Assembly (NCBI GenBank): GCA_964497475.1
Contig: CAZCDM010000001.1
Span: 1-61,485 of the forward strand
Length of the DNA: 61,485 nt
Source: an uncultured Planctomycetaceae bacterium
GTDB taxonomy: Bacteria > Planctomycetota > Phycisphaerae > SM23-33
Direction of reading: 5' to 3'
A program made the translations under genes and the position numbers. Shown here in pieces: positions 1-14,700 of this stretch. The notes beneath the pieces were generated by a model. The model was not told the origin of the DNA, searched no databases, and was given only the letters and a program-made list of their open reading frames with translations. Position 1 is the stretch's first letter. Every line of letters begins with the position of its first letter.

Positions 1-224
1 ATTTCGAGTCGTGTTTTGTGAATCCTTAACCAAAGGCGAACAATTGCGTTTTTATGGAGTTCTAATCCAATGCTTGTTCAATGTGAATATGAGTTGCGCA
101 TAGTGTCTCTCGCTGAGCATGGTCAACTGAGATATCCTGCCATGCGTTCAATCAGAACTGTGGCCGCAGCGCGTGTTGTGGCAACCCAATTCGAACCCGT
201 TGGAAAGCCTTGAAAGGAAACACC

Positions 225-596
225 ATGAGTGACACGATGGAAGAAAATGCAGTGAACCAGGACGTAGTAGAAAACCAGGCCCGCGAGCAGACCGGCCAGC
301 AGCAGGTCCGTCTTCGCATGGATGAGCGGGATATGACCACCAGCTACGCCAACGCGTTCCGCACGAACGGCACGGCTGAAGAAGTCATGCTGGACTTCGG
401 GCTGAACCTGGTGTCCCCGGCCGCCGGTCAGCAGGACCGCCCGGAGATTCTTTTCCAGGTCAAGAATCGCATCGTCATGAACTACTACTCGGCAAAGCGC
501 CTGGCCATTACGCTCGGCCAGCTGATCCGTCGTCACGAAGAGCAGTTCGGCGAGCTGGAACTGGACATGCGGAAGCGTCAACAGGCCGGCGAATAA
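225..596 (+). CDS. Small DUF3467-like protein (123 aa from ATG 225; the ORF track starts it at TTG 210)
   Basis: ORF track 210..596 (+). ATG 225 lies just downstream of AAGGAAA (214-220), so I prefer it to TTG 210. The C-terminal half (YANAFRTNGTAEEVMLDFG ... RIVMNYYSAKRLAITLGQLIRRHEEQFGEL) matches my memory of the DUF3467 (PF11950) signature. Not verified by a search. Confidence 0.75.
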   Translation: MSDTMEENAVNQDVVENQAREQTGQQQVRLRMDERDMTTSYANAFRTNGTAEEVMLDFGLNLVSPAAGQQDRPEILFQVKNRIVMNYYSAKRLAITLGQLIRRHEEQFGELELDMRKRQQAGE

Positions 597-640
597 GCAT
601 CTCATTCCATGATGCAGATTGACTTCGGGTCAGGTCCTCG

Positions 641-659
641 CGGGCTTGGCCCGTTTTTT
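641..659 (+). terminator. Possible weak rho-independent terminator after the DUF3467-like gene
   Basis: Hairpin CGGGC (641-645) - TTG - GCCCG (649-653) followed directly by TTTTTT (654-659), about 45 nt after the stop at 594-596. The stem is only 5 bp with a 3-nt loop, so support is weak. Confidence 0.35.
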
Positions 660-838
660 CTCCCTTCGTGCGATACGTCACACGACTCATCTTAGCATGA
701 TCTTAACCTCGCATTAGCACCTAAATTGCAAAAGCGATTTATGATGGTTGTCCGCGACTGGCCGAGCTGAGCAAAGAGAATTTTCGCTTGATCGTCCGGA
801 AGCACCCCCCACCCCCCACGCCGCAGGCTGAGAGAACG

Positions 839-2734
839 ATGCAAGAAACAAGCTACATCTCGTCGTCCCCTGGTTTGAAGTCTGCCCCGTCGGCCTCGAA
901 GCCGGGCGCATTGATCCGCCGGCTGATTCAGTTCGAGGGCTCGGCCGAGTCATATGTGCCTGTCTGGCTGGAAGCGCAGTGCTCCTTTGCCGGCGCGTCT
1001 GCCGGTGCGCTGCTCAGCAGCGATGGCAGTGGTCAACTCGTGCCCCTTGCAATGCACCCGGCGCCGCAGGGGGAGAATCCTTCGCTGCCGGAGTGGCTGG
1101 CCCGCGGGGCGGCCGTGGCTTTGCAGGCGGCCCATACCGGCCAGGCTCGGCGGATTCCGCTGCCCGGGCGTGACGAGGATTTCTATGCCCAGGCCGGCCA
1201 GCGCTGTGCTATCATCGTGCCGATCTATTCCGAGCTGGGCGCATCTGGCGCGGGCGTTTACGACGTTACCGCCGCCGGGCCCGAGGAACTCAATCTCGCA
1301 CAAGAACGACTCGAACTGACCAGCACGTTTCCCTCGCGGCATGCGATGCGGTTGAAGCTTGACCGCCGCCAGCAGGACCTCGAAGCCCTCCAGGCCGCGA
1401 TGGAAACTCTCACCGCCCTGAACTCCTGCAAGCGGTTCCAGGCTGCCGCGATGGCCCTTTGCAATGAGCTGACTGCCCGGTTCCACAGCGAGCATGTCGG
1501 CCTGGGGATGCTTCGCGGGCGGTACGTGCATCTCAAAACGCTTAGCCATACTGAAGAATTCAGCCGCAAGATGAAAATCGTCCAGCACATGGAAGCGGCG
1601 ATGGAGGAGTGCTTCGACCAGGACCTTGAAATCGTTTATCCCCCGGACGACGAGGCGACCTACACCAGCCGGGCCACGCGAGACCTCTCGAAGAAAGAAG
1701 GTCCGTCCTCGATTCTTTCATTGCCTATCCGCTACGAGAAGGAGGTGGTCGGCGTATTGACGCTTACGCGTTCGGCCGAGGATCCCTGGCAGCATAACGA
1801 GATGGAAACCCTCCGGCTAACCTGCGACCTGATGGCCGCCCGGTTGGTCGAAATATATCAGCGTGACCGCTGGTTTGGCGCCCGCCTGGCCAACTGGATA
1901 AAAAAGGGCCTTGCGATGGTGCTCAGCCCTCGCCATACCTGGGCGAAGCTTGCCGCCATTGGGATTGTGGGGTTTGTACTGTTTGCATTGTTGGTGAAAG
2001 GGGAGGATTATGTCCAGTCATCATTCTCGCTGGATGCGACGCAGCGGCAAGTGGTAGCGGCCGGGCTGAACACCCGGCTGGACAGTATCCGCGCGGAGGT
2101 CGGCCAAGAGGTCAAGGCAGGGCAGACCCTGGCCACGCTGGACGTGATCGATCTTGAACTCGAGCGGGGCCGACTCCAAGCCGAGCGGCTTGGCTACCTC
2201 ACCGAGGCCGCCATTGCCCGCAAGGAGGGCGAGCACGCCAAGGCAGACATCGCCAACGCCAAGGCTGCCCAAGCCCAGGCTGAGCTGAAGCAGATCGCAT
2301 ACAAAATTTCCCTTGGCAAGTTACAAGCTCCGCTTGACGGAACGATCGTCACGGGCGACCTGCATCGCAGGCTTAACTCCGATGTGCAACGGGGGGATGT
2401 TCTTTACGAGATCGCGCCACTGCAGTCGCTTCGGGCGGATTTGCTCGTGCCAGAGGATCGCATTGTGGATGTCCGCCTTGGGATGAAGGGCGAGCTGGCA
2501 ACGGCCTCGTATCCGGATCGCAAGGTCGGCTTCACCGTCGAGCGGATCAATCCCGAAGCCGAGGCCATCAATCAGGACAACGTCTTCCGCGTGCGTGTTC
2601 GCCTGGATTTGATCCAGCCCTGGATGCGGCCTGGCATGGAGGGCGTGGCGCGGATTCATGTCGGTCGCAGCCCCTATGCCTGGCTGTGGACACGCCGGCT
2701 GGTCAACTGGGTTCGCATGAAGCTCTGGATTTGA
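839..2734 (+). CDS. GAF-domain / HlyD-family membrane-fusion (periplasmic adaptor) protein, 631 aa from ATG 839
   Basis: ORF track 788..2734 (TTG start); the first in-frame ATG is 839. The central region is GAF-like (ILSLPIRYEKEVVGVLTLTRS ... ETLRLTCDLMAARL). There is one TM helix (WAKLAAIGIVGFVLFALLV, about 1941-2000). A HlyD module follows: lipoyl-like half motifs (VKAGQTLATLD ... LQAPLDGTIVTGD), an Ala/Gln/Lys-rich coiled-coil hairpin and a beta-barrel tail (VFRVRVRLD). Confidence 0.8.
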   Translation: MQETSYISSSPGLKSAPSASKPGALIRRLIQFEGSAESYVPVWLEAQCSFAGASAGALLSSDGSGQLVPLAMHPAPQGENPSLPEWLARGAAVALQAAHTGQARRIPLPGRDEDFYAQAGQRCAIIVPIYSELGASGAGVYDVTAAGPEELNLAQERLELTSTFPSRHAMRLKLDRRQQDLEALQAAMETLTALNSCKRFQAAAMALCNELTARFHSEHVGLGMLRGRYVHLKTLSHTEEFSRKMKIVQHMEAAMEECFDQDLEIVYPPDDEATYTSRATRDLSKKEGPSSILSLPIRYEKEVVGVLTLTRSAEDPWQHNEMETLRLTCDLMAARLVEIYQRDRWFGARLANWIKKGLAMVLSPRHTWAKLAAIGIVGFVLFALLVKGEDYVQSSFSLDATQRQVVAAGLNTRLDSIRAEVGQEVKAGQTLATLDVIDLELERGRLQAERLGYLTEAAIARKEGEHAKADIANAKAAQAQAELKQIAYKISLGKLQAPLDGTIVTGDLHRRLNSDVQRGDVLYEIAPLQSLRADLLVPEDRIVDVRLGMKGELATASYPDRKVGFTVERINPEAEAINQDNVFRVRVRLDLIQPWMRPGMEGVARIHVGRSPYAWLWTRRLVNWVRMKLWI

Positions 2735-2740
2735 TCGATC

Positions 2741-4924
2741 ATGGTTGATCGCCCGACATTCAGCGAGTCGTGGTATCGCGTGGCGCATCTACGCCCTCGG
2801 CTTCGACCGACGGTGCATTTTTATCGGCAGCATTATCGCGGGCGAATGTGGCATGTGCTGGAGGATCGCTCCTCCCATCGCTATCTTCGACTGGACTGGC
2901 CGGCCTATCGATTCGTCTCGCTGTTGGACGGGCAGCGAACCCTCGAACAGGCCTGGCAGCTCTGCATCGAAGAACTCGGCGACGAGGCCAACACGCAGGG
3001 CGAAGTCATCCAGCAGCTCGGCCAGCTCTACGCATACAACCTCCTGCAGAGCGATACCGTGCCCGATATCGACGGCATGTTCAAACGCCGCCAGAAACGT
3101 GTCCATCGCGAGGTACGCAGCCAGCTTGCCAGCCTGATGTTCTTCCGCCTGCCCCTGTGGGATCCCGATGCCTTTCTCGACGCGATTCTTCCGCTGTTCG
3201 GCTGGCTGTGGTCGTGGCTTGGGCTTGTGCTCTGGCTGGGGCTTGTCTCGACCGGGCTGTACTACGTCATCGACCAGTGGGGCCACCTGTCAGACAAAAC
3301 ACAGTCCATTCTCGATCCGGAGAACATTCCTCTGCTGTATCTGTCTTTCGCGATCGTCAAGGTGTTGCACGAGTTCGGCCATGCCTTGTCCTGCAAAAAA
3401 TTCGGTCAGCAGGAAGGCTCCGGCGGCGAGGTACACACCATGGGCGTGATGCTTCTGGTTCTCACTCCCATGCCCTATGTCGATACATCCAGTGCCTGGG
3501 CGCTGCGAAACAAGTGGCATCGCCTGACGATCGGTGCTAGCGGCATGCTCGTTGAGTTGGGCGTAGCGGCCGTTGCGGCCATCATCTGGGCGCACACCTC
3601 TCAGTTCACCGTGGTGCGGGGCATTTGCTATAACGTCATGTTCATCGCCAGTGTCTCGACTCTGCTGTTCAACGCCAACCCGCTGCTTCGCTATGACGGG
3701 TACTACGTCATCTCTGATCTGCTGGAGATTCCCAACTTTGCCCAGCGCAGTCGGGAGTACGTCATTTACCGCGTCAAGCGATATGCATGGGGTCTCAAAC
3801 GCCTGGCCTGCCCGGCTCACTCCTTCGGCGAGCGGGTCTGGATGAGTTTCTACGGCCCGGCGTCGGTGGTCTATCGCGTGGTGATCCTCGTTACGATTCT
3901 GCTGTTTCTCACCGACCGGCTGCCCAAGCCGCTGCTGGTCATCGGTATCCTGATGATGTTTGTCAGCATGTTCATGTGGCTTTGCATGCCCCTGCTGAAA
4001 TTCCTCAAATACCTCTTCACCAGCCCCGAGCTGGCACGCGTTCGAACTCGGGCGATGCTCTCGACTGGTCTGTTTGCCAGTGGAGTGATCTACCTGATCG
4101 CCGGGGTCGAATTGCCCAACCGGACACGCCTGGCGGGCATTACTGAGCCGGTGGAGTCCACCGTGATCTATGCAGCCGAGGACGGCTTCCTCGACGACTG
4201 CCTCCCGCATGGCCAGATCGTCGACCAGCCGGGATCGGTTCTGGTGGATTGCCGCAACCAGGAACTCGCCTTGCAGGCTCAGCAGATTCAGCTGCAGCAG
4301 GAGATGGTTGACTGCCAGATTCGCCTCCACCGAGAGCAACGCAAACCGGCCCTGGTCCAGGCCTTCCTCCATCAGAAGCAGGTTCTCGACCGGCAACGAA
4401 ACAGGCTGAACGAACGAACTGAGCGCCTGGACCGCCGGGCGGACCATGAAGGCATTTGGCTGGCACGCAAGCTTGATGCATCACGCGGCGCACTGCTGCC
4501 TCGCGGCGCGGAACTCGGTCAGTTGATCCGCCTCGAGAATATCCGAGTGCGCGTAGCGGCCTCCCAGGACGTCGCTGCGCAGCTCGTCGCCCAGGCCCGG
4601 CCCGACGTGGCAATCCGTCTCAAGGGGCGACCCGACGTTGAATTCGCCGGGCGGATTGAGAAGATTCTTCCCGCCGGGCACAAGCAGCTGCCCGCCCAGG
4701 CCTTGTCCTATGGAGCCGGCGGATCGATTCGAACCAACCCCCAGAAGCCCGAAGAGGCAGCCGAGAACCTCTTCGAGGTCTGGATTACCGTGACCGCCCC
4801 ACCGGCCGAACACCTGCTCAGCAAGCAGCGGGTCATCGTCCGGTTCGATCTTGGTGATCAGTCGCTTACGAGGCAGATGTGGCTGAAGGCGAGACGGATT
4901 TTCCAGCGACGGTTCGGGGTGTAA
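2741..4924 (+). CDS. M50 (site-2-protease-like) zinc metalloprotease fused to a C-terminal HlyD-like periplasmic module; N-terminus PqqD/RRE-like
   Basis: ATG 2741 is 6 nt after the previous stop. The HEFGH zinc motif (3368-3382) sits in a polytopic membrane region. The first ~100 aa have a three-strand plus three-helix pattern (HFYRQHYRGRMWHVLEDRSSHRYLRLD / YRFVSLLDGQRTLEQAWQLCIEELG ... VIQQLGQLYAYNLL) reminiscent of PqqD. The last ~250 aa are HlyD-like (coiled coil QELALQAQQIQLQQEMVDCQIRLHREQ, then a beta-barrel). Confidence 0.85.
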   Translation: MVDRPTFSESWYRVAHLRPRLRPTVHFYRQHYRGRMWHVLEDRSSHRYLRLDWPAYRFVSLLDGQRTLEQAWQLCIEELGDEANTQGEVIQQLGQLYAYNLLQSDTVPDIDGMFKRRQKRVHREVRSQLASLMFFRLPLWDPDAFLDAILPLFGWLWSWLGLVLWLGLVSTGLYYVIDQWGHLSDKTQSILDPENIPLLYLSFAIVKVLHEFGHALSCKKFGQQEGSGGEVHTMGVMLLVLTPMPYVDTSSAWALRNKWHRLTIGASGMLVELGVAAVAAIIWAHTSQFTVVRGICYNVMFIASVSTLLFNANPLLRYDGYYVISDLLEIPNFAQRSREYVIYRVKRYAWGLKRLACPAHSFGERVWMSFYGPASVVYRVVILVTILLFLTDRLPKPLLVIGILMMFVSMFMWLCMPLLKFLKYLFTSPELARVRTRAMLSTGLFASGVIYLIAGVELPNRTRLAGITEPVESTVIYAAEDGFLDDCLPHGQIVDQPGSVLVDCRNQELALQAQQIQLQQEMVDCQIRLHREQRKPALVQAFLHQKQVLDRQRNRLNERTERLDRRADHEGIWLARKLDASRGALLPRGAELGQLIRLENIRVRVAASQDVAAQLVAQARPDVAIRLKGRPDVEFAGRIEKILPAGHKQLPAQALSYGAGGSIRTNPQKPEEAAENLFEVWITVTAPPAEHLLSKQRVIVRFDLGDQSLTRQMWLKARRIFQRRFGV

Positions 4925-4925
4925 G

Positions 4926-6911
4926 ATGGCATCCTCCGCCAGCGCCATTTGGAGAACCCTCAGCTACGACACTCGGCAGGAACCGCTGCCCAAGGGCATT
5001 GATGCGATCTGGGATCGACTGGATGGCTTGGCACGGAGGTTGATCCGCAGGCGGCAGAGCTGTCTGGTCCGGGCCGATAAGGTCCTCCGGCTGGAAAAGG
5101 AGTTCACCGAACTCACCGATGCACGTCTACACGAGGTCTGCGAGGATCTGCGTGATCGGTTCCTCCGGGGCCGGGAGACCGCCGGCGATATGATCCGCGC
5201 CTTCGCGATGATTCGTGAGGTGGCCTTCCGGCAGTTGGGGATGCGACATTACCGGGTGCAGCTGGCAGGGGGGTTCTCCCTGGTCGATGGCTGCATTACG
5301 GAGATGGCCACCGGGGAGGGCAAGACCCTCACGGCTACGCTGGCTGCGGTTGTGGCTGGCTGGCGAGGTCGGGGCTGTCACGTCATGACCGTCAACGATT
5401 ACCTGGCCGAACGCGACGCGGAGGACATGTCGCCAGTCTACAAGGCCTGCGGGTTGAGTGTGGCTTTCATCGGCGGCGAAACGCCTCAGCCCCAACGTCG
5501 CGAAGGATATCTCGCCGATGTGACCTACCTGACGAACAAGGAGGTTGCCGCCGACTTTCTTCGCGATCGACTGGCGCTGGGCTCGATGCGTTCGCTCTCC
5601 TCGGCCTTGCTGGCCAAGCGGGTCCACGGCAGGGGCTCGGGCACGGACAAACTTGTCCAGCGCGGGCTGCACTATGCGATTGTCGACGAGGCCGACTCCG
5701 TCCTTATCGACGAGGCCGTCACCCCCTTGATCATCTCAGGGCAGGCATCCAACCCCGTCCAAGTCGAAGCATTTGAGCAGGCCGCCCATTGGGCGACCCG
5801 GCTGGATCCCGGGCGACACTATCGGGTCAACCGAAAATATCACGAGGTGACGCTCACCTCGGCTGGACAGGAAGTCCTCCGCCGCTGGGGCCAGGCCGCC
5901 GGGGGCATCTGGACCGGGTCTCGCCGGCGCGAAGAACTGATGATCCAGGCCATCACCGCCCGCGAGCTGTACGTCCGAGGCCAGCAGTACATCGTTCAGG
6001 ACGACGCGGTGGTGATCGTGGATGAATTTACCGGCCGACTCATGCCCGACCGTGAATGGCGCGACGGTCTCCACCAGGCCGTCAGCGCCAAGGAAGGCCT
6101 GGAAATCGAACCACCCAAGGCGACTTATGCCCGCATCAGCTTCCAGCGGTTTTTCCGCATGTACCGCCAACTCAGCGGAATGACGGGAACCGGTCGGGAA
6201 GCCATAAGCGAATTTTGGCAGATTTACCATCTGCCCATCGTGGAAATTCCCACCAACCGCCCATGCCTCCGGAAACATCTGCCAGACAGAGTCTTCCCGA
6301 CCCAGCGGGCAAAGTACCAGGCCATTGCCGAGGAAATTCAGACGGTTCACCAGACGCAGCGGCCGATTCTGGTCGGTACCCGAAACGTCAAGGATAGTGA
6401 ATATCTCAGCAACCTGTTGCATGAAAAAGGTCTCGAACATGAAGTGCTCAATGCGGTTTACCACAAAGAAGAGGCACAGATCGTCTCCCGGGCGGGGCAA
6501 CCTGGGGCGGTCACCGTGGCGACCAACATGGCCGGGCGGGGGACTGACATCAAGCTTGGGCGGGGCATCAAAGATATAGGCGGCCTGCACGTAGTTGCGT
6601 GCGAACGGCACGAGTCACCTCGCGTCGACCGGCAGCTCTACGGCCGGGCCGGGCGGCAGGGTGATCCTGGGAGCTGTCAGGCCTGGGTCAGCCTCGAGGA
6701 CGATCTCGTTCAGCGACATGCCGCGAAGCAGGTTCGCATGATGCAGCAATTCCATCGTGGCGGAGAAAAGTCCATCGCATCAGCCGTTACGAGGCAGTTG
6801 TGGGATCAGGCGCAGTCCAGAGCGACCCGGATGGCATTGCGACAACGAAAGTCTGTTCTGGAAACCGATAACTGGCTTGACGAATATCTCGGTTTTGCCG
6901 GTATGGAATAA
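4926..6911 (+). CDS. SecA-like DEAD-motor ATPase, C-terminally truncated paralogue (661 aa)
   Basis: ATG 4926 is 1 nt after the previous stop. SecA motor motifs occur in canonical order: Walker A MATGEGKT (5304-5327), VNDYLAERD, IVDEADSVLIDEAVTPLIISG (DEAD 5685-5696), FQRFFRMYRQLSGMTGT, VATNMAGRGTDIKLG, ERHESPRVDRQLYGRAGRQGDPG. The protein ends about 70 aa after the GRQGDPG motif. Confidence 0.9.
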   Translation: MASSASAIWRTLSYDTRQEPLPKGIDAIWDRLDGLARRLIRRRQSCLVRADKVLRLEKEFTELTDARLHEVCEDLRDRFLRGRETAGDMIRAFAMIREVAFRQLGMRHYRVQLAGGFSLVDGCITEMATGEGKTLTATLAAVVAGWRGRGCHVMTVNDYLAERDAEDMSPVYKACGLSVAFIGGETPQPQRREGYLADVTYLTNKEVAADFLRDRLALGSMRSLSSALLAKRVHGRGSGTDKLVQRGLHYAIVDEADSVLIDEAVTPLIISGQASNPVQVEAFEQAAHWATRLDPGRHYRVNRKYHEVTLTSAGQEVLRRWGQAAGGIWTGSRRREELMIQAITARELYVRGQQYIVQDDAVVIVDEFTGRLMPDREWRDGLHQAVSAKEGLEIEPPKATYARISFQRFFRMYRQLSGMTGTGREAISEFWQIYHLPIVEIPTNRPCLRKHLPDRVFPTQRAKYQAIAEEIQTVHQTQRPILVGTRNVKDSEYLSNLLHEKGLEHEVLNAVYHKEEAQIVSRAGQPGAVTVATNMAGRGTDIKLGRGIKDIGGLHVVACERHESPRVDRQLYGRAGRQGDPGSCQAWVSLEDDLVQRHAAKQVRMMQQFHRGGEKSIASAVTRQLWDQAQSRATRMALRQRKSVLETDNWLDEYLGFAGME

Positions 6912-6937
6912 TCAGCATTGGAAAGGACGTTATCAAA

Positions 6938-7945
6938 ATGAAATATCTGGTATGGGCGATACTGGTACTTTTTTTTATGCAGTATGCATCTGTTCGAGCG
7001 GATTCGAGAGAGGCTGCGTATACCGGCCTGACCCAGCCATCGAAGGAGGTCATGATTGGGTTTCTTCAGCCTGGCCGAGTAAAACAGGTTCTTGTCAAGG
7101 AAGGGCAGAGGGTCAAGGAAAAACAGGAACTGATTCATCTCGATGATTCGGTAGATCGTGTGATGCTTAAGCAATTGGAGATGCGAGCAGCCAATAATAC
7201 GCGCATTGAAGCCGCCCAAGCGGAGCTCAATCAGAAAATGGTGGATCTCAATCGTGTCGAGATGCTTCGTAAGCGGGGGGTAGCGACCGTCACGGAATTG
7301 GAGCATGCCAAGCTCAATAGAACGGTCGCTTCCTTGTCAGTCGATCTGGCAAAGTTCGAACAGAAACAGGCAGAACTGAAGCACGAGGAACTTAAGACAC
7401 AATTGGAGCAGATGGTTTTGGTCAGCCCGATTAACGGGGTTGTCGAAGCCATAGCCGTAGACAAAGGCGAACCAGTTGACCGGCTGGAAAAAGTTGTCCA
7501 TATCGTGGAGATTGATCCGTTGTGGATCAGTGTTCGGATCCCGCTTGCTGAGGCGCAGAAAATCCCTCTCGGCCGAAAGGTCGATGTTCGGTTTCCAGGC
7601 TTGGGACATAAGCAGATTCAAGGCAAGGTAGTTCATAAGCCCGCTGTCGGTGACTCAGCTAGTGGTACTCTTGAACTCCGCATCGAGGTCGCGAATCCTG
7701 ATGACAGGCCAGCCGGTCAGGAGGTCTGGGTGAGCATTCCCGATCTCAAGCCGTCGGCCCCTGCTCGCAATGTGCCAGTCAAAGCCCAAGAAGATACGCA
7801 GATGGAGAATGAGAAGGAGCAGGGGAGTCTTACTGAGGATCGGGATGAGTCCGACACGCCTGGCTTGTCCGAAATGCGCCAAGCACAGCCATGCGTTCAA
7901 GGGAAAGTGCGGGCTATTGACGAGAGTTCAAGTGCCAGCAGTTGA
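6938..7945 (+). CDS. Secreted HlyD-like (barrel-sandwich / coiled-coil / beta-barrel) adaptor protein, 335 aa
   Basis: ATG 6938 with AAGGA at 6923-6927. Signal peptide MKYLVWAILVLFFMQYASVRA. Lipoyl-like motifs (GRVKQVLVKEGQRVKEKQELIHLDD ... SPINGVVEAIAVDKGEPV) flank a coiled coil, followed by a beta-barrel (KVDVRFPG ... LELRIEVANPD) and an acidic tail. GC is clearly lower than in the three genes upstream. Confidence 0.75.
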   Translation: MKYLVWAILVLFFMQYASVRADSREAAYTGLTQPSKEVMIGFLQPGRVKQVLVKEGQRVKEKQELIHLDDSVDRVMLKQLEMRAANNTRIEAAQAELNQKMVDLNRVEMLRKRGVATVTELEHAKLNRTVASLSVDLAKFEQKQAELKHEELKTQLEQMVLVSPINGVVEAIAVDKGEPVDRLEKVVHIVEIDPLWISVRIPLAEAQKIPLGRKVDVRFPGLGHKQIQGKVVHKPAVGDSASGTLELRIEVANPDDRPAGQEVWVSIPDLKPSAPARNVPVKAQEDTQMENEKEQGSLTEDRDESDTPGLSEMRQAQPCVQGKVRAIDESSSASS

Positions 7946-8491
7946 TGTTCTATGTGAATCGCACATGGGGTTCTCAGAGTGGTGAACAGGGGGAGGTAGT
8001 TCATCATATCCGAGGATCAGATCAGAATCAGCTTCTGGAATCTTGCGAATTTTTTCTGCGTTAGCGCATTCTTTATCTGGCTGTCCGATTAATGCAGCAG
8101 CGGGAAAAAACGGGGAATCGCCCTTCTGGGAAGGGACAAAATGAAATGTCCCTGTGCATTAAATTTGAGTTTTGTAAGAGATGCGTTCAGGTCGCGCAAA
8201 GGCGAAATGCTAACGGGTCTTAACTTGAAAGCGGCTGGTATTCACTCCAGAATGTGCGCGTAGAGTACGTCTCTGGGCTTGTCATTCGGAGCCGAGCCAC
8301 CGTCAGTGACGCATTCGTAATGAAATGGAATTCGGAATAGAGCGCAGTATGCCGCTGAACTCTCCAATAAATCTTGGTCTCGTGTTTATCGCCTTTTTCG
8401 GGGCACCTTTCAGGTATGCCCTTTCCTTATTGCGCAGATCGAACGGACTGGACAGGTCTTCATCTGCGTTCATTCCACGAGGAGTGAAATC
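7946..8491 (+). promoter_or_regulatory. AT-richer 546-bp spacer; probable promoter/5' UTR of the giant gene, with Shine-Dalgarno GGAG at 8481-8484
   Basis: This is the only long non-coding gap between + strand genes. GGAG at 8481-8484 lies 7 nt before ATG 8492. There is an inverted repeat AGGGACA (8132-8138) / TGTCCCT (8147-8153). No promoter consensus can be assigned confidently for this lineage. Confidence 0.4.
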
Positions 8492-8728
8492 ATGTCTTTG
8501 ACCTCGAAAGCGTACCAACGTCTTTGCCACATGTATCGCGTTGTTCTGATGAAGATGCGTGTGAAGAACTTCATGCAGTTTGCGTATCACTCGCCATTGG
8601 CGGGCAAACGCAAGGGCAGGGGCGGTCTGCGCCGACGGCGAGGTGGCGAGGACGGGGCCACTGCGCGCGGAGGGGGTGTTGCGCCATCCAAGCGTATCGA
8701 GATGCTCGAGCCGCGCGTCATGCTTTCC
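8492..8728 (+). other. N-terminal leader: Arg/Gly-rich stretch followed by the LEPRVMLS motif (8705-8728)
   Basis: Translation: MSLTSKAYQRLCHMYRVVLMKMRVKNFMQFAYHSPLAGKRKGRGGLRRRRGGEDGATARGGGVAPSKRIEMLEPRVMLSGTPL. There is no classical hydrophobic signal peptide. LE(P/D)RxLLS after a basic stretch is a motif I recognise from the N-termini of large Planctomycetota (and some Verrucomicrobiota) extracellular proteins. Confidence 0.6.
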
Positions 8729-11700
8729 GGTACCCCGCTGGGTGATCCGGACGATGAGGAAGGTTTTTCCCAGCAGGCCCATCAGCAGATTGACGAGGGG
8801 CTTGGCAAGCTGGCTGCTCTGGGCGAGATGATTGACACTTCGACGGACTTCGCCCAGGACATCATGGTGTTTCAGGGGGCAGAGGGCCTTGGCGAGCTGT
8901 TCGATCTTGGCGATGTGGTGGCCGAGCAGTTGCGTGCTCCGCTGGCGAGTTTCAATTCGATTTCCGATATTGACGGCGATGGGCTGGACGTGGGCGATTA
9001 CATCTCGGCCCTGGAGGCCTTGGCAACGCCGGCCGACTACAGCGATGATACCGGGCCGCTTGGCTTTGCGGTGGATGTTCTGGCTGGCGGATACTACGCC
9101 GACAGCGACCAGCTCGATTTTGAAATATCGATCAATGCCGAACGGCTTAGTGAGATTACTCTGGCCATGGGCGATGAACTATCGGCCTTTGGCATTACGG
9201 CCGGCGCGGGCGAGGCGTTCGAGTTGGCCACTCAGTTGGAGTTCAATTTCGCCTTCGGCCTGATGAATGTCAATTCCACCCCGAGCTTCTACATCCGTCA
9301 GATGGGGTTGGCCTTTTCGATGGATGCCACCTCGCCGGAGATTTCCCAGCAGGTTCAGATCGCGCACCCCTCCGGTGGCGTGGCCCTGGCGACGACAGCC
9401 ACGGGACAGGTCAGCCTGCTCGATGCGGGGGCGACGGTCGCCTTTGCCGATTCGCTCCTGGCCGATGGCATGGTGGACTCGGCGGAGCTGGACTCCATGG
9501 GGGCCAGCGACCTGCTGATTGAGATGACCGGTTCCCTGGAGGCTTCGCTGGACGTATCGGCCACCGTGCCGGGCTTCAGCGACCTGGGTGGCGGGACGCT
9601 TCGTCTCCGTAGCGATTCGCTCTTTGGCGGCGAGGCATCGGAGGTGAATTTCGACGTGGCCGTCAGTGACGAACTGGCCGGCCATCTTGTCGACGTGTTC
9701 TCGCAGATTCACGGCCTGGGCACGACGCTGGCCGGTGATGCAGACCTGACGGCTGCGATTCCAGGCGTGGGGATCAGCCTCAATGAGTTGCTTGGCGAAG
9801 GTGGTATTGATGGGCTGCTGGGGCGGGTCTCTGACGCGGCAGGACAGTACCTGGCAGGGGCTGAGGACATCAGCATCTCCGAGTTGGTGGAGTATATCGA
9901 GGATCAGTTCAATGCCGCCGAGTTTGACGTTGACCTTGGCGGGCTGGACGTTCAGGGCGGCTACGATAACAGTCAGCAGACGTTGTTCATTGACCTGTCG
10001 ATGGCGCCGCAGTACACCGAGGCGTTCCAGTTGGACTTCGCCTCGATTGCCGACTCGATCGCCGCTTCGCTGCGGACCGATGCCACCGTCGATGTGACCG
10101 TCACCGGCGCGATGGACCTGCGGATCAATGTGGACCTCAGTGATCCCTACGTCACGGCCGAGGATGTGTGGTTCGCTGCAGGCCAGGGCAATGATATTCT
10201 GGACCTCTCGGCGGTGATCGAGAGTTACGATCTGCTGTTTGACGCGAGTTTTGCGGGCCTGGGAGTGACGGCTGGCACGGCGGCCAATCCGGCTTCGATG
10301 GTGGCGACGATGTCCTTGGCGGCGGGGCTGATCGACAATGATGAAGATGATCGCGTGAGCCTGGCCGAGCTGCTTTCGGGCGGTTCGGGCATTGCAGCCA
10401 GTCCGTCCGGAAGTGTCGATGTGACCCTGCCGTTTGGCGTTACGCTTGGCGGGTATGATTTCACCGACGGCGGAACGGTCCTGCCGGTGATTGAAATTTC
10501 CGACTCGGCTCTGTTTGACGGCACGGCTGCGACGATTACGACCAGCAACCTCGATGCGATGGTACTGGCGATCGTCGACGACCTGGCCAGCCCGGCCACG
10601 ACGGCCCTGCAGCAGTTGGATACGCTGGCCGGTCGGCTGGAGTCGATGCTTTCTCAGGCAGGTCTGAGCGACGCGCTGACGGCGGTGATTCCGGGCGTGG
10701 GGCTCTCGCTCAACGACCTCTTCGGCCAGGGCGAAACCGGCCTGAGCGACTTCCTGGATATCGGCCAGCATATTCGCGATTACCTGGCTGGATTCGACGC
10801 GGGAAGTTGGCAGATCGGCGATGCGCTGCCGACTCTGCCGGAACTGGTCGAGTACCTCAACCTCAACTGGATGACCACGCTGCCGGGCGAGGGCCATAGC
10901 CTGTCCTGGGAGCTTACGGCAACGGGGTTGGCGGTGAATTTCGTGTCGCAGTCGAATTTCAGCCGACAGGTGGCGTTTGATCTTGGCGCCGAGGCCGAGG
11001 CGCTGGGCCTGACGGCCGAGGGAGAACTGGGTTTCGATTTCCAGACCGATATTGACTTGGGCTTGGCGATTGACTGGTCGACCGGTGCGGTGACGGTCGA
11101 CGTCAATACCTTCGACTTTGACGCATCGGCCGACATGGCGAACTTCCTGGCTGGCGGCCGGGTTGGCCCGCTGGCGATTTCTCTGGGGCGCGACGGCCAG
11201 TACGGCTCGGCGCGGATTGACATTGCAGGGGCGGTTACCTGGGATGACACCAACGAGACCCTCGCGGTGGTGATGGACACGGCCAGCGAGGCCAATCGGG
11301 TTGACGTAACGCTGCCGGTTTTCGCTACGCTGAGCGGCACGTCGCTGGCCGATGAGGCCAATCCGCCGGCGATCACGCTGGCCGGCGAGCTGTTTCCGGC
11401 CGTGCCCGAAGACGGCGTGAGCCTAGACGTGAGCGGGCTTGGCGACTTGCTGGACTTCGGCGAGTTGAGCTTCAGCGATGTGGCTCGGGCCCTGAATGAG
11501 GGCGTGGATTTTCTTCAGAACGCCATCGAGCGGATGCCGTTCTACCGCGAGGTTCTTCCGCTGATCAACCAGAGCCCGGCCGAGATTTTCACATTCATTG
11601 ATTCGCTGCAGGACGCGGTAGACGATGCCCTGGCCGATCCGCAGGCCACGTTGCAGTCGATCGAGTCGGCCATTGAGTCGGCCCTGGGGATCGTGGATGA

Positions 11701-14700
11701 CAACACCGCCGCGGCCGGGGAGCAGTTCTTCAAGCTTTCGCTGGATAGCGATATTTTGCAGATACACTTCGGCCTCGACGAGACGATTCAGCAGAGTGTG
11801 CCTCTGCTGCTGGACGTGTCAGCCTTTAAGGAGATGGTCGGCGGGGTCAGCGAACTGCTGGGCATTGACCAGTTGGCTGCATCGGCCGGTGGGCAGATCG
11901 CCATCGACGCCTTCCTGGACGGCGATATCGAGTTGGGCGTGGACCTCGGTGATGTTGCATCGGGCGCGCCGGCGGTTTTCCTGTACGACCAGAACAACAC
12001 CGCCAGCCTTGGCGGGGCGGGGACCCATCTCACGGCCGGGTTCAAGGTTCTCGGCAGCGGTTCGGGCCAGGCCGAAGCCCTTACCTTTACCGCCGGCGGA
12101 TTGACCGTCGAGGCCGTTGACTGGGCGGTGACCCTGGACGCCGACAGCGATGCGGGCACGAATCCCGAGTTGCTCACTGCCGGCGATCGCAGCGATTACG
12201 TGACACTCTCACTGGGCCTGGCCGAGCCGGCCGGCGGCAGTGCTGACGGACGATTCTACGTCGGGGAGACGCTCAGCGACGCGGTGGACTTCACGGTTAC
12301 CGGCGGCATGGAGGTGGTTCTGCCGCTGCGTGTCACTGCTGGCGGGCTGGAGCTGGACTTCACGCAGACGCCGCTTAGGATTTCGGGCAATACCACGGAC
12401 TATCCCGACGGCGGAGTACTGACGGAAATCGTCAACCGCCTGACGGGGCAGTCTAGCGGCGGGGCTCTGCCGATCACCTTCGATCATCCTGACATGGCGG
12501 CGGTGATGGGGCAGGTTTCGGGGCAGCTTATGGCCGATGCCCTCGATGCCCTGGCCGTCCGGCTGGAAGGACTCAAGCAGCAGCTGATGGACAACGTCCG
12601 CGACACGCTCTCGGCGACGATTCCCGGCACACATTACAGTATTAACGACCTGCTGGACCTCGAGCGCGACGAGGCGTCGATTCCTGAAGAGATCACGGCC
12701 GACACGTCGCGGGGCATGGAGCTCTACCTCACAGCGGGCGATCATCTGGCGACGTATCTGCAGACCCTCAGCCTCGACGGGCCCGTCAACGCGATGACCA
12801 TCGCGGCCGGCGCGATGGACTACCTCAACACCCACTGGATTCCGACACTGCCGGGCTACGATGCCGAAAGCGGCACGAGCCCGCTGAGCCTGACGATGCA
12901 GAGCGATCTGACCAGCGGTGAGATCGTCGGGTTTACGGTGGCCTTCGACGGAACGACGAGTTTCACCCGCAGCGTGGACATGAACCTCGGGGACGAGGCC
13001 GACGATCTGCATATGAAGTTCTCCGCCGATGCCCAACTCGATCTGACGATCGATGCCAACGCGGCCTTCAGTTTCGGCGTGGACCTCACCGGCGGGGTGC
13101 CGGATTTCAATTTTGACGTCTCGAACCTCAGCGTGGCCGTCAGTGGCGGTGCCAGCGATATCGTCGCCGGTGTGGAGGTCGGGCCGGTTTCGGCGACGAT
13201 CGGTACGGACGCTGTCGGCGGAAGCAAGGGCCAGGCCACCCTCACCAATGTCGGCGTGGCCCTGACGATTCCCGCCGGAAGCGATTTGACCTTCGACGCG
13301 ACCGGGCAGGTGGATATCGTCCTGCCGTTCTACGCCCAGCTGGGGGATTACGACTTCAACGCCAATGACATCGTCCCGACCTTGAGCTACCAGGGGTATC
13401 TCTTCCCCGAGGCCGGCCAGGATGCCGCCGCCTTCAGCCACAGTAACTTCGAGGAGTTCTTCAATCTCAGCCGCTTCAGTGTTGACGACATTCTGGCGAT
13501 GCTCGAAGAGGTTCGCGACTGGTCGGCGACGCTGGGCGAGAACGACTGGTTCGCCGCGAACATTCCCTTCGTCGATATCACCCTGGGCGATACGCTGGAC
13601 TTCGCCGAGGGGTTCAATGAGGAAATCCTCAGCCGGATCGATTTTACCGCCATTGAGTCGCTGCAGGATTTTATTGTTGAATTTGCCAATGCCGGCCTGC
13701 TGCCCCAGGGCGTGAGCCTGGAATACGACCCGGCCGAAAACGCATTCATCGTGCCGGTGGCGTTCGACGTGAACCTGCTGGACCTGGAAGGTTTGGCCCT
13801 GGATTTCGGGATGGACCTTGGCGATGAACTGCTGGCCCTGGAGACCAGCTCGACGGCCGACGTGGGAGCGTCGGTGAATACCTCCTTCGATCTGATTATC
13901 GACCTGGACGATGACACGTCGGGCAGTGTCCTGCCGACGTGGTATCTGGATGATTTTACCCTGGGCGGCACGGCCGGGTTCAATGTCGACAACCTGGAAG
14001 TCGCGGCCCGGCTGGGATTCCTGGGCGTGACGCTTGGTGGCGATGCCGCCTCGGGTATCGATTTCGATGCAACGGCGACGGTGACTCTCGGCGATGAGAC
14101 CAACTCGCGATTCGCCCTGGCGGAGTTGCTCAACGGCACGCTGCTGGACAACCTGCACTTTGACGTTACAGGCAGTGGCATTGCTTCGCTGCATGGCCTG
14201 GCCGTCGGGGGCGATTACGGCTCGGTGCTCGCGGCGCCGGATGCAACCCTGGGCATTCATGTTCAGGACATTACCGATATCGGTTCGACGGTGACGCTGA
14301 ATCCGGCGTCCGGCGAGACGGTGGACCTTGCCGCGATGGTCGCCTCCGGCGAACTCAATGCCAATGATCTGGTGGTCATCGTTCCCGAGCTTGGCGATGT
14401 CTTCAACGTGCGGAACCTGGATTTTGGCGCAATCATCGGTGCGCTCAACGAGGGGCTGGAGGTACTCGAACAGTCCCTGGCCGATACGGCCTTTTACAAC
14501 GAGACGATTCCAGTCATCAATCGTTCCCTGAGCGACGTGTTTGATTTTGCGACAACGTTCGCCGATCGCGTGGCCGATGCGGCGGCCAACCCCGTCGCCA
14601 CGCTGCAGCAAGTCGAATCAGCTCTCGAATCGGCATTGGGAATCGAGGATGACAACACCCTCGCAGCCGAGAATCAGGCCCTGGCCCTGACGTTGGCCGA

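Follow-up and report, generated by a model that had tools for sequence, protein, structure and literature searches.

The open reading frame at positions 2741-4924 of an uncultured Planctomycetaceae bacterium (GenBank GCA_964497475.1, contig CAZCDM010000001.1; the window is the whole stretch analysed, 61,485 nucleotides) encodes a 727 aa protein in which a predicted PqqD/RRE-like peptide-recognition domain, a polytopic M50-type metalloprotease core and a predicted periplasmic adaptor domain are joined in one polypeptide. It belongs to a conserved module containing a SecA-like ATPase, which in many bacteria from different phyla lies beside genes for giant, presumably surface, proteins carrying an N-terminal ‘LEPR’ tag. 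We therefore consider it probable, at roughly 0.55, that this protein is the reader and cutter of that tag in a barely studied secretion route, although binding, proteolysis and export are all inferred. Neither the architecture nor the module is new: the gene order GAF/HlyD, M50/HlyD, truncated SecA, HlyD was described computationally in 2015 with no known substrate (PMC4452313), and fusion of an RRE to a site-2 protease is known from daptide biosynthesis. What is added here is the link to a cargo. The features of the locus are as follows.

225-596 (+): DUF3467 protein (123 aa), a fifth conserved member of the module whose possible role as chaperone or adaptor is inferred.
788-2734 (+): GAF and membrane-fusion (HlyD-type) protein with a cytoplasmic N-region containing the GAF domain, one TM helix and a periplasmic adaptor domain; the likely true start is the ATG at 839.
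2741-4924 (+): the tripartite protein under study (727 aa).
2741-3040 (+): PqqD/RRE-like domain of that protein (residues 1-100), predicted to be cytoplasmic.
3167-4108 (+): its polytopic M50-type core (residues 143-456), with seven TM helices and a beta-hairpin at residues 234-247; HEFGH lies at nt 3368-3382 and the N311-x-N-P-x4-D319-G motif at nt 3671-3700.
4109-4921 (+): its predicted periplasmic membrane-fusion (HlyD/MacA-like) domain (residues 457-727), with coiled-coil hairpin, lipoyl-like domain and beta-barrel.
4926-6911 (+): truncated SecA-like ATPase (661 aa) with NBD1, the preprotein cross-linking domain and NBD2.
6938-7945 (+): small HlyD-type periplasmic adaptor (335 aa) with an N-terminal signal or anchor.
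8492-61485 (+): giant LEPR-XLL protein (>17,660 aa, running off the window end), the proposed cargo.
8693-8743 (+): LEPR-XLL tag of the giant (residues 68-84, ...KRIEMLEPRVMLSGTPLG), following a basic leader of about 67 aa with no hydrophobic core; the proposed RRE ligand and cleavage region.

The initial annotation of this gene, made from sequence alone, described an N-terminal region of about 100 aa resembling PqqD/RiPP-recognition elements, a polytopic M50-type core and an HlyD-like C-terminus, and this observation was confirmed. The frame is open at the coordinates given, HEFGH occupies residues 210-214, the helix sequence LLDGQRTLEQ that had been singled out lies at residues 61-70, and the motif LEPRVMLS, proposed to end the nearest leader-like sequence, is found at residues 72-79 of the downstream giant. 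The remark that no small precursor-peptide ORF is evident nearby requires one amendment, since the DUF3467 gene lies at 225-596, but this encodes a conserved folded protein and not a precursor peptide. The adjacent truncated SecA-like ATPase, the DUF3467 gene and the earlier computational descriptions of the M50/HlyD-SecA module (PMC4452313) and of RRE-site-2-protease fusions (daptide MpaP) had been missed.

Each domain of the protein scores below its Pfam gathering threshold in this particular sequence. For the N-domain, Pfam PqqD (PF05402) gave 16.4 bits against a cut-off of 23.4 (E 0.012), whereas 44 of 50 homologues hit the same model with a best E of 5.9e-7. A profile of the N-domain searched against the PDB found PqqD 3g2b at E 0.0054 over nearly its full length (PqqD residues 13-94). 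The AlphaFold model (pLDDT 84, about 90 in the core) has three strands (25-32, 35-42 and 47-51) followed by three helices (53-60, 68-82 and 86-98), and Foldseek matched it to the lasso-peptide B1 RRE-leader complexes 6jx3_B and 5v1u with TM 0.67-0.72, and to CteB, ThcOx and LynD. The most conserved stretches of the N-domain are beta3, in which R50 is invariant, and the APTQGE-alpha3 segment, which would fit a conserved ligand.

The core is a divergent relative of peptidase family M50 rather than a core member. PF02163 gave 17.6 bits against a cut-off of 27.2 (E 0.0026), and 37 of 50 homologues hit at E<=0.01 with a best value of 7e-6. The NCBIfam model for the daptide intramembrane metalloprotease (NF041824) scored E 1.1e-45 over residues 19-417, and the YydH/LiaK model E 6.9e-8. 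HEFGH lies inside predicted helix 196-225, and N311-A-N-P-L-L-R-Y-D319-G, corresponding to the NxxPxxxxDG motif that supplies the third zinc ligand, lies at the end of helix 291-311. H210, E211, H214, N311, N313, P314 and D319 are invariant in 50 homologues at about 50% identity, and the motifs are also kept in the more distant relatives used for locus retrieval (FN[GA]NPLLR[YF]). Such conservation is hard to explain without catalysis. It counts against the unlikely alternative that the core is a catalytically silent scaffold or channel and that the tag is recognised but never cleaved, although the weak Pfam similarity and the earlier proposal that the M50 protein could form the inner-membrane pore (PMC4452313) are in keeping with that view.

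The C-terminal domain was matched by Foldseek to MacA, MexA, AcrA, EmrA and ZneB at E 6e-12 to 1e-8, with alignments to the first four at about 1e-11 over roughly 255-365 columns, mostly about 270-290. In the model, helices 507-532 and 536-561 are flanked by beta domains, following a TM anchor. The curated sequence models fell short of their thresholds (HlyD_3 15.1 against 22.2; HlyD_D23 12.9 against 30; NCBIfam RND_mfp 26.8 against 94.9, E 2.3e-6 over residues 458-645), but 33 of 50 homologues hit HlyD_D23, the best at 1.7e-12. A topology of seven TM helices with the N-terminus inside and the C-terminus outside places the RRE and the active site, at the cytoplasmic ends of TM2 and TM4, on the same cytoplasmic side and the adaptor in the periplasm. 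This topology is our reading from hydropathy, the positive-inside rule and the secondary structure of the AlphaFold model rather than the output of a dedicated predictor. Each computational check proposed with the annotation was passed. The fold of the N-domain and the compatibility of its position with that of the active site had both been set beforehand as points on which the annotation could fail, and both were upheld.

The four genes at 788-7945 are tightly packed, with gaps of 1-26 nt. The GAF protein was identified by HlyD_D23 (1.3e-13), HlyD_3 (2e-13) and GAF (7.9e-11), and the small adaptor by HlyD_D23 (3.6e-17) and by RND_mfp at 119.6 bits, above the cut-off of 94.9. The ATPase matches SecA_DEAD (2.6e-99), SecA_PP_bind (5.3e-26) and P-loop_SecA (1.6e-61) but aligns only to residues 26-606 of B. 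subtilis SecA, and all SecA and SecA2 NCBIfam models score below their cut-offs. It lacks most of the helical scaffold, the wing domain, the two-helix finger and the C-terminal tail. The DUF3467 protein (Pfam E 2.4e-17) is followed by a terminator-like hairpin at 626-653. It gave no sequence match to any solved structure with either the single sequence or a profile, and only one unrelated paper was found to mention it; that it might be SecB-like is conjecture. An Rfam scan of positions 1-9000 found nothing, and a promoter scan performed no better than on shuffled sequence.

The family of the tripartite protein is large and its architecture fixed, with about 3,623 representatives at 50% identity (E<=1e-30), nearly all around 720 aa. 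In nearly all of 82 related genome loci, spanning Planctomycetota, Verrucomicrobiota, Kiritimatiellae, Nitrospira, Desulfobacterota, Proteobacteria and others, the order GAF/HlyD, M50/HlyD, SecA-like is kept, with GAF/HlyD directly upstream of the tripartite gene. DUF3467 homologues are present in 29 of 82 loci, usually directly upstream of GAF/HlyD, a position also seen in plasmid operons. A TolC/OEP gene is adjacent in 19 of 82, and an ABC-ATPase-like ORF is present in only 2 of 82.

This context bears on a rival reading in which the RRE-M50 part removes the leader from a small modified peptide encoded elsewhere, the adaptors export it, and the giant gene is only a neighbour. The closest curated families are indeed RiPP leader peptidases, NCBI names family members ‘PqqD family peptide modification chaperone’, and RREs are typical of RiPP pathways. 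However, no modification enzymes and no conserved short precursor ORF appear in the 82 loci, in which the only small conserved gene is DUF3467, a folded family of about 120 aa. The operon of the window contains no aminotransferase, decarboxylase, methyltransferase or precursor genes, and the 156.4 bits obtained with the daptide model are well below its cut-off of 300, so that the protein is a homologue of that family and not a member. As the conserved partners are a SecA-like protein-translocation ATPase and giant LEPR-tagged genes, this reading appears unlikely. Still less likely is regulated intramembrane proteolysis of a membrane regulator such as an anti-sigma factor, as by RseP or SpoIVFB, with the adaptor and GAF parts being sensory. 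The M50 homology and the neighbouring GAF domain would allow this, but no sigma or anti-sigma genes are conserved in the loci, there are no PDZ or CBS domains, and the fusion to a membrane-fusion-protein fold and the linkage to SecA-like, TolC and giant cargo genes point to transport.

The link to the giant protein, which the initial annotation had called speculative, is the part of its interpretation that gained most. The giant ORF is part of a 17,720-codon open frame, its ATG at 8492 is preceded by an RBS-like AGGAG, and RTX repeats and an Amidase_2 domain lie inside it. Its N-terminus passes the curated LEPR-XLL model (NF012209, LEPR-8K) with 20.7 bits against a cut-off of 17 at residues 68-84. 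No homologues of its first 500 aa were found at E<=0.001, so the cargo could not be traced by homology. In the 82 module loci, 9 strong and 2 weak LEPR-tagged ORFs, mostly huge, were found across four phyla. The nine strong ones adjoin the module directly or nearly so (in locus L020 an OEP-like ORF lies between), in upstream, downstream, divergent and convergent arrangements, and five of them pass the NCBIfam cut-off. A large ORF upstream of the module in locus L053 has a classical signal peptide and was not counted. Large upstream ORFs in L006, L069, L074 and L081 were left unclassified. For the Neptuniibacter giant of L069 a homology search for the N-terminus returned only internal fragments, and in the Aliamphritea locus L083 a fragmented giant RTX gene lies directly upstream of the module with its N-terminus outside the DNA examined. 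Only about 13% of these MAG loci show a LEPR neighbour, and the first two inspected (L001, from a 6.5-Mb chromosome, and L002, from a 320-kb contig) have none within 10 kb, so that cargo is often encoded elsewhere or differs.

In the reverse direction, among 82 genuine LEPR N-termini drawn at random from metagenomes, with 276 kb of upstream DNA in total, module-specific genes are upstream or adjacent in 6-7 loci where chance predicts about 0.06. A SecA hit in locus L139 (36% identity, 10 kb away) is doubtful and was not counted as firm, and loci L093 and L105, with hits to the small HlyD only, were not counted as module-specific. A further secA lead, Chlorochromatium Cag_1676, comes from a preprint alone. 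In 6 of 6 alphaproteobacterial plasmid modules inspected, a gene for a protein of 8,148-12,918 aa lies immediately upstream. PGAP names two of these ‘LEPR-XLL domain-containing protein’ and we read the motif at the N-terminus of the other four. The tag is not a Sec or Tat signal, as in the metagenomic examples the leader is 22% K+R and the median longest hydrophobic run is 5 residues.

Taken together these data support the interpretation given in the initial annotation, of a leader-recognising protease physically wired into an adaptor assembly, with binding and cleavage of the tag remaining inference. The sequence and structure comparisons establish the three-part polypeptide with its intact catalytic motifs, its place in a tightly packed operon between a GAF-adaptor protein and a truncated SecA-like ATPase, and the recurrence of giant LEPR-tagged genes as immediate neighbours. 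The mechanism is our inference. In this view the protein is the inner-membrane recognition and processing subunit of a type-I-like, SecY-independent export machine. The RRE would bind the acidic (F/L)-E-x-L-E-P-R-L-L-L-S segment of the tag as an added beta-strand, as RREs bind RiPP leaders. The SecA-like motor, which keeps its preprotein clamp but lacks the SecY-engaging finger, would feed the unfolded giant N-terminus first into a conduit built from the M50 helices and three adaptor proteins docked to a TolC-like channel. The M50 site, through inferred zinc-dependent activity, would clip off the basic leader at or just after the LEPR motif, and the GAF domain may gate the machine. There is precedent in the RRE-dependent intramembrane site-2 protease that removes the daptide leader, which ends in the ELExMEAP motif directly before the core peptide (bioRxiv 10.1101/2023.03.08.531785), and in EpeP, an M50 protease thought both to cleave and to export its peptide (PMC10885120). 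The module itself has been proposed to be T1SS-like with the SecA-like protein as the ATPase (PMC4452313). Several points weigh against this model. Adjacency shows a functional link but not which subunit reads the tag, and the SecA-like preprotein clamp could be the receptor. Classical site-2 proteases cut membrane-embedded segments whereas the LEPR tag has no TM segment, no obvious protein-conducting channel (ABC or SecY) is in the module, and in M. extorquens most of the operon was not expressed in exponential phase (PMC4452313).

The RTX repeats of the cargo also sit uneasily with N-first export, since in classical T1SS such repeats accompany a C-terminal signal and C-first export. This leaves a possible, though less likely, alternative in which the giant is exported C-terminus first by a separate ABC-type T1SS while the module holds its N-terminal tag at the inner membrane through the RRE and releases it by regulated M50 cleavage sensed through GAF, by analogy with LapD/LapG control of LapA. 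RTX repeats occur in the giant of the window and in related giants, the Vibrio LEPR-XLL giant has C-terminal RTX and serralysin domains (PMC10868602), and a GAF sensor is present. Against this, ABC ATPase genes are almost never near the module, the module carries its own ATPase, three adaptors and often TolC, which is more than a tether would need, and the SecA-like protein retains the preprotein-binding domain.

A broader reading, which we hold tentatively as slightly less likely than not, is that LEPR-XLL is the sorting signal of a distinct, widespread secretion pathway for giant proteins of 8,000 to more than 17,000 aa, read by an RRE domain borrowed from peptide natural-product biosynthesis, and removed by the attached M50 protease, with the cargo driven by a SecY-independent truncated SecA through a conduit of three adaptor proteins and TolC. 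This would be a secretion-system type with no ABC transporter, no SecYEG, and its own signal and signal peptidase. It bears on the open question of how bacteria export proteins of 10,000 aa and more that lack Sec, Tat or recognised T1SS signals. The LEPR-XLL tag is a curated but functionally unexplained domain, with only two incidental mentions in the literature searched. Pairing tag and module gives each a candidate function and makes both directly testable, with a defined 11-residue motif, receptor domain and active site and genetically tractable hosts in the Rhodobacterales, Rhizobiales and Methylosinus plasmids, and it would extend RRE domains from small-peptide biosynthesis to protein sorting. 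Family members are currently named inconsistently as ‘PqqD family peptide modification chaperone’, ‘site-2 protease’, ‘prepilin peptidase’ or ‘DEAD/DEAH box helicase’.

Among described systems, the secondary SecA_DEAD/T1SS-like module of Kamneva, Poudel and Ward (2015; PMC4452313), for example M. extorquens AM1 META1p2402-2399, has the same four genes in the same order, and the operon of the window is a member of it. That study did not report the PqqD/RRE domain, the DUF3467 gene or any substrate and described the biological role as ‘completely unknown’. The daptide leader peptidase MpaP, with its N-terminally fused RRE, is homologous over the RRE and the first six TM helices (model positions 1-368 of 379) and shares the logic of an RRE on a membrane M50 protease, and both presumed substrates carry an acidic h-E-x-h-E-[PA] motif close to the N-terminus. 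The protein of the window differs in having an extra TM helix and a 270-aa periplasmic adaptor domain, no daptide biosynthetic genes nearby, and a presumed substrate of more than 8,000 aa rather than a peptide of about 40 aa. The epipeptide protease EpeP/YydH (NF058609), with weak homology, is likewise thought to couple leader removal with export but has no adaptor fusion, no SecA-like partner and a small peptide substrate. In peptidase-domain ABC exporters with HlyD-type adaptors (bacteriocin/NHLP systems; classical HlyBD-TolC T1SS), signal recognition and cleavage are by analogy physically coupled to an adaptor/TolC conduit and the adaptor fold is shared, but here the motor is a truncated SecA paralogue and not an ABC transporter, the protease is of the zinc M50 type and not a C39 cysteine protease, and the proposed signal is N-terminal LEPR-XLL and not a double-glycine leader or a C-terminal RTX signal. 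Finally, in giant Omnitrophota proteins with embedded SecA_DEAD and preprotein-binding domains (bioRxiv 10.1101/2023.11.21.568195), a SecA fragment lacking the scaffold and wing domains is associated with export of giant proteins, and the giant of the window also carries a cell-wall amidase domain. There the SecA fragment is part of the giant polypeptide and the neighbours are T2SS/T4P-like, whereas here it is a separate protein in an adaptor/M50 module.

The open reading frame at 2741-4924 on the forward strand is real and encodes 727 aa, with HEFGH at residues 210-214, corresponding to nt 3368-3382, exactly where the initial annotation had placed it. The gene is the second of four tightly packed forward-strand genes, separated by gaps of 1 to 26 nt, and its surroundings are as follows.
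225-596, forward strand: DUF3467 gene (123 aa; E 2.4e-17), followed by a terminator-like hairpin
788-2734, forward strand: GAF plus HlyD-type adaptor protein
2741-4924, forward strand: the protein under study
4926-6911, forward strand: SecA-like protein
6938-7945, forward strand: small HlyD-type adaptor
8492-61485, forward strand: giant ORF starting at the ATG at 8492, part of a 17,720-codon stop-free stretch, exceeding 17,660 aa and still open at the window's end
The dozens of minus-strand ORFs of 200-1,600 aa that are listed across the giant gene (9179-61312, reverse strand) are antisense shadow frames of a high-GC coding region and not genes. The database gene call for the protein under study (P0001, 692 aa) starts at Met36 and therefore omits, within 2741-2845, the conserved RPTFSESWYRV segment and the first predicted beta-strand of the RRE. 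As homologues align from residue 2, the ATG at 2741 is the better start.

The initial annotation described this polypeptide as combining a PqqD/RRE-like N-terminus, an M50 protease core and a HlyD-like C-terminus, and that observation is confirmed. For the single sequence Pfam gives only a weak PqqD hit, although at the family level 44 of 50 homologues hit PqqD. A profile of the N-domain finds the PqqD structure 3g2b at E 0.005, aligned over PqqD residues 13-94. AlphaFold2 models of the whole protein (pLDDT 81.9) and of residues 1-125 (pLDDT 84) both give three strands followed by three helices, and Foldseek matches the modelled domain to RRE domains crystallised with their leader peptides, namely the lasso-peptide B1 proteins 6jx3_B and 5v1u at TM 0.67-0.72, as well as to the RREs of CteB, ThcOx and LynD. 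The top Foldseek hits by E-value are, however, to a sub-domain of the GdmN/NovN carbamoyltransferases. In the core, the NCBIfam model for the daptide intramembrane metalloprotease matches residues 19-417 at E 1e-45, although the score of 156 bits is below its equivalog cut-off of 300. H210, E211 and H214, together with N311, N313, P314 and D319, are invariant among 50 homologues that are about 50% identical. Finally, about 270 C-terminal residues match MacA, MexA, AcrA and EmrA at E around 1e-11.

The model and hydropathy give seven TM helices, at about 156-178, 196-216, 258-284, 291-311, 366-392, 397-423 and 436-456, with a beta-hairpin at 234-247 between TM2 and TM3. There is no signal peptide, a basic stretch precedes TM1, and the charge count is 15 K+R on the inside against 5 on the outside. 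From this an N-in, C-out orientation is inferred, although this is our own reading of these features and not the output of a dedicated predictor. In this orientation the RRE is cytoplasmic, HExxH and NxxPxxxxDG lie at the cytoplasmic ends of TM2 and TM4, and the adaptor domain is periplasmic. An N-domain and an active site on incompatible sides of the membrane, which had been set beforehand as grounds for rejecting the interpretation, are therefore not what this reading gives.

The architecture is common and stable. A word-indexed search found more than 5,300 relatives, and an exhaustive search found 3,623 representatives at 50% identity with E<=1e-30, of which nearly all of the best 150 are 715-740 aa and align end to end. 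Family members are named in the sources as 'PqqD family peptide modification chaperone', 'PqqD family protein' or 'putative peptide zinc metalloprotease protein'. Loci containing the module were examined in 82 cases, from genomes of Planctomycetota, Verrucomicrobiota, Kiritimatiellae, Nitrospira, Desulfobacterota, Alpha-, Beta- and Gammaproteobacteria, Methylomirabilia and Rokubacteria, and the order GAF/HlyD, M50 fusion, SecA-like is kept wherever the contig allows. A TolC-type gene is present in 19 of these loci, while an ABC-ATPase-like ORF is present in only 2. DUF3467 is a fifth conserved member of the module, present in 29 of the 82 loci (for example at 7671-8048 in module locus L002) and usually lying directly upstream of GAF/HlyD. 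In two of the metagenomic loci described below it lies upstream of a LEPR-tagged gene, directly in L194 and about 0.5 kb away in L196. Neither a relative of solved structure, by sequence, nor any literature was found for this protein, and a chaperone-like role is only a guess. The SecA-like protein aligns to B. subtilis SecA residues 26-606 only. It keeps both nucleotide-binding domains and the preprotein cross-linking domain but lacks most of the scaffold, the wing, the two-helix finger that enters SecY, and the C-terminal tail, so that this SecA paralogue cannot engage SecY in the canonical way. In public records its orthologues are variously named 'DEAD/DEAH box helicase', 'prepilin peptidase', 'preprotein translocase subunit SecA' or 'hypothetical protein'.

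The most speculative idea in the initial annotation was that the 'leader' recognised by the protease is the N-terminus of the giant protein, and several lines of evidence now bear on it. The N-terminus of the giant in the window passes the curated NCBIfam LEPR-XLL model (NF012209), with 20.7 bits against a cut-off of 17 at residues 68-84. When the 82 module loci were searched with a small HMM of the motif, nine strong hits (E<1e-6) and two weak hits were found, and every hit lies near the start of an ORF. Five of the nine strong ones exceed 1,500 aa, and several run off the contig. The nine strong ones adjoin the module directly or nearly so (in locus L020 an OEP-like ORF lies between), whether downstream, upstream, divergent or convergent. 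The hits come from Planctomycetota, Verrucomicrobia (locus L064), Kiritimatiellae (L054) and Nitrospira (L047), and five pass the NCBIfam cut-off. In the reverse direction, a degenerate DNA pattern for E-x-L-E-P-R-L-L-L retrieved 120 metagenomic stretches, of which 82 are genuine N-terminal tags on long ORFs, 65 of these running off the contig and reaching more than 4,100 aa. In the 276 kb of DNA upstream of these genes, module-specific genes occur in six or seven loci (L100, L124, L143, L194, L195, L196 and, doubtfully, L139), whereas one 8-kb module per 5-Mb genome would predict about 0.06 such encounters by chance. Locus L195 shows the complete order GAF/HlyD, M50 fusion, SecA-like, LEPR gene.

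Plasmid-borne modules provided a further test with independent annotation. All six alphaproteobacterial examples inspected have a gene of 8,148-12,918 aa immediately upstream on the same strand. Two of these, in Pontibrevibacter and Pseudosulfitobacter, are named 'LEPR-XLL domain-containing protein' by PGAP, and three more carry the motif at the N-terminus under other names or unannotated: FDTLEPRVLLNAD in Methylosinus, FEALEPRLLLSAD in Mesorhizobium and YEPRLLLSADL in Pseudohalocynthiibacter. The Methylosinus operon ends with a TolC gene. In Pseudohalocynthiibacter (plasmid NZ_CP049043.1, from about 34979 across the origin to about 7640) the tagged gene is a single 11,582-codon ORF that crosses the record origin, makes up more than half of this 62-kb plasmid and is absent from the distributed gene table. 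In Alisedimentitalea scapharcae (plasmid NZ_CP123586.1) the annotated start of the 8,148-aa 'calcium-binding protein' lies just after an in-frame VEQLEPRLLLAAD motif (526-640, reverse strand, of locus L212 from this plasmid). The real start is probably an upstream non-ATG codon, so the annotation hides the LEPR tag. A SapC family gene sits inside or next to the module and giant-gene cluster in two plasmids, at 14245-15066 of locus L209 (Pseudosulfitobacter) and at 858-901 of L212 (Alisedimentitalea). Those giants may use the same pathway.

The nature of the tag was examined in the 82 metagenomic examples by reading the positions not fixed by the search pattern. The tag has a leader of median 34 residues containing 22% K+R, R-R-K at positions -6 to -4, F or L at -1, then E-x-L-E-P-R-L-L-L and then S-A-D-L. 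The median longest hydrophobic run is five residues, and the tag is therefore not a Sec, Tat or lipoprotein signal. The basic leaders ahead of the motif fall into recurrent sub-families (metagenomic loci L093, L105, L106, L111, L138, L195 and L201; L120, L129, L184 and L193), for example 'TLRQIFWGxLAxGxRRxAxWRxxG...' and 'KNWWQKLQHGLR...REKLVFEHLEPRLLLSDTPIPLP', and the leader of the window's giant (KAYQRLCHMYRVVLMKMR) resembles those of L200, L086 and L103. The region upstream of the motif therefore also carries conserved information. The motif itself, carried by LEPR peptides such as KRIEMLEPRVMLSGTPLG, has two conserved glutamates. The most conserved parts of the RRE are beta3, with invariant R50, and the APTQGE-alpha3 segment, and further invariant arginines are R13, R29 and R33. 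That is where RREs hold their ligands, although charge complementarity is our inference only.

As the most likely mechanism, we commit to a model in which the protein is the signal receptor and signal peptidase of a LEPR-XLL export machine, the SecA-like ATPase is the motor, and the three adaptor-type proteins plus a TolC homologue form the periplasmic and outer-membrane conduit. What the analysis establishes is the domains, the conservation of the catalytic residues and of the module, and a strong bidirectional gene-neighbourhood association with LEPR-tagged giants. Which subunit binds the tag, whether the tag is cleaved and by proteolytic activity of the M50 site, the direction of translocation and what forms the inner-membrane channel are matters of inference from sequence and models alone, without experimental support. 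Against the model, most Planctomycetota loci have no LEPR gene within 10 kb. In addition, the window's giant contains RTX nonapeptide repeats, at 18002-18091 and again at about 40685-40789. This keeps alive a rival explanation in which the giant leaves by a classical C-first T1SS and the module only tethers or releases its N-terminus. The first block of repeats lies just before an N-acetylmuramoyl-L-alanine amidase domain (Amidase_2, E 9.5e-23) at 18338-18757 on the forward strand, about residues 3283-3422 of the giant. A cell-wall-cleaving domain on a protein of more than 17,000 aa recalls the proposal that giant bacterial proteins attack prey cell walls. Beyond these features, the first 500 aa of the giant have no detectable homologue among 5.8 billion proteins and most 1,600-aa segments have no Pfam hit. 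The interpretation offered in the initial annotation is supported, and its speculative part is considerably strengthened.

The four-gene module has been described computationally before (Kamneva, Poudel and Ward, 2015; PMC4452313). These authors proposed a type-I-like function with the SecA-like protein as the ATPase and the M50 protein as a possible pore, and stated that the biological role is 'completely unknown'. They did not mention a PqqD/RRE domain, DUF3467 or any substrate. RRE domains fused N-terminally to intramembrane site-2 proteases were reported in the daptide work, in which the peptidase MpaP is called RRE-dependent and the leader carries an ELExMEAP motif that ends at the cleavage site. 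The M50 protease EpeP is, moreover, thought to both cleave and export its peptide. The tripartite fusion itself is therefore not a discovery, and the useful new content is a concrete pairing of proposed signal with proposed machine for the export of giant proteins. Set beside these systems, the protein joins an RRE-site-2-protease to a membrane fusion protein inside a module already described but functionally orphan, and is a divergent relative of RiPP leader peptidases that acquired an adaptor domain and lives in a protein-export module.
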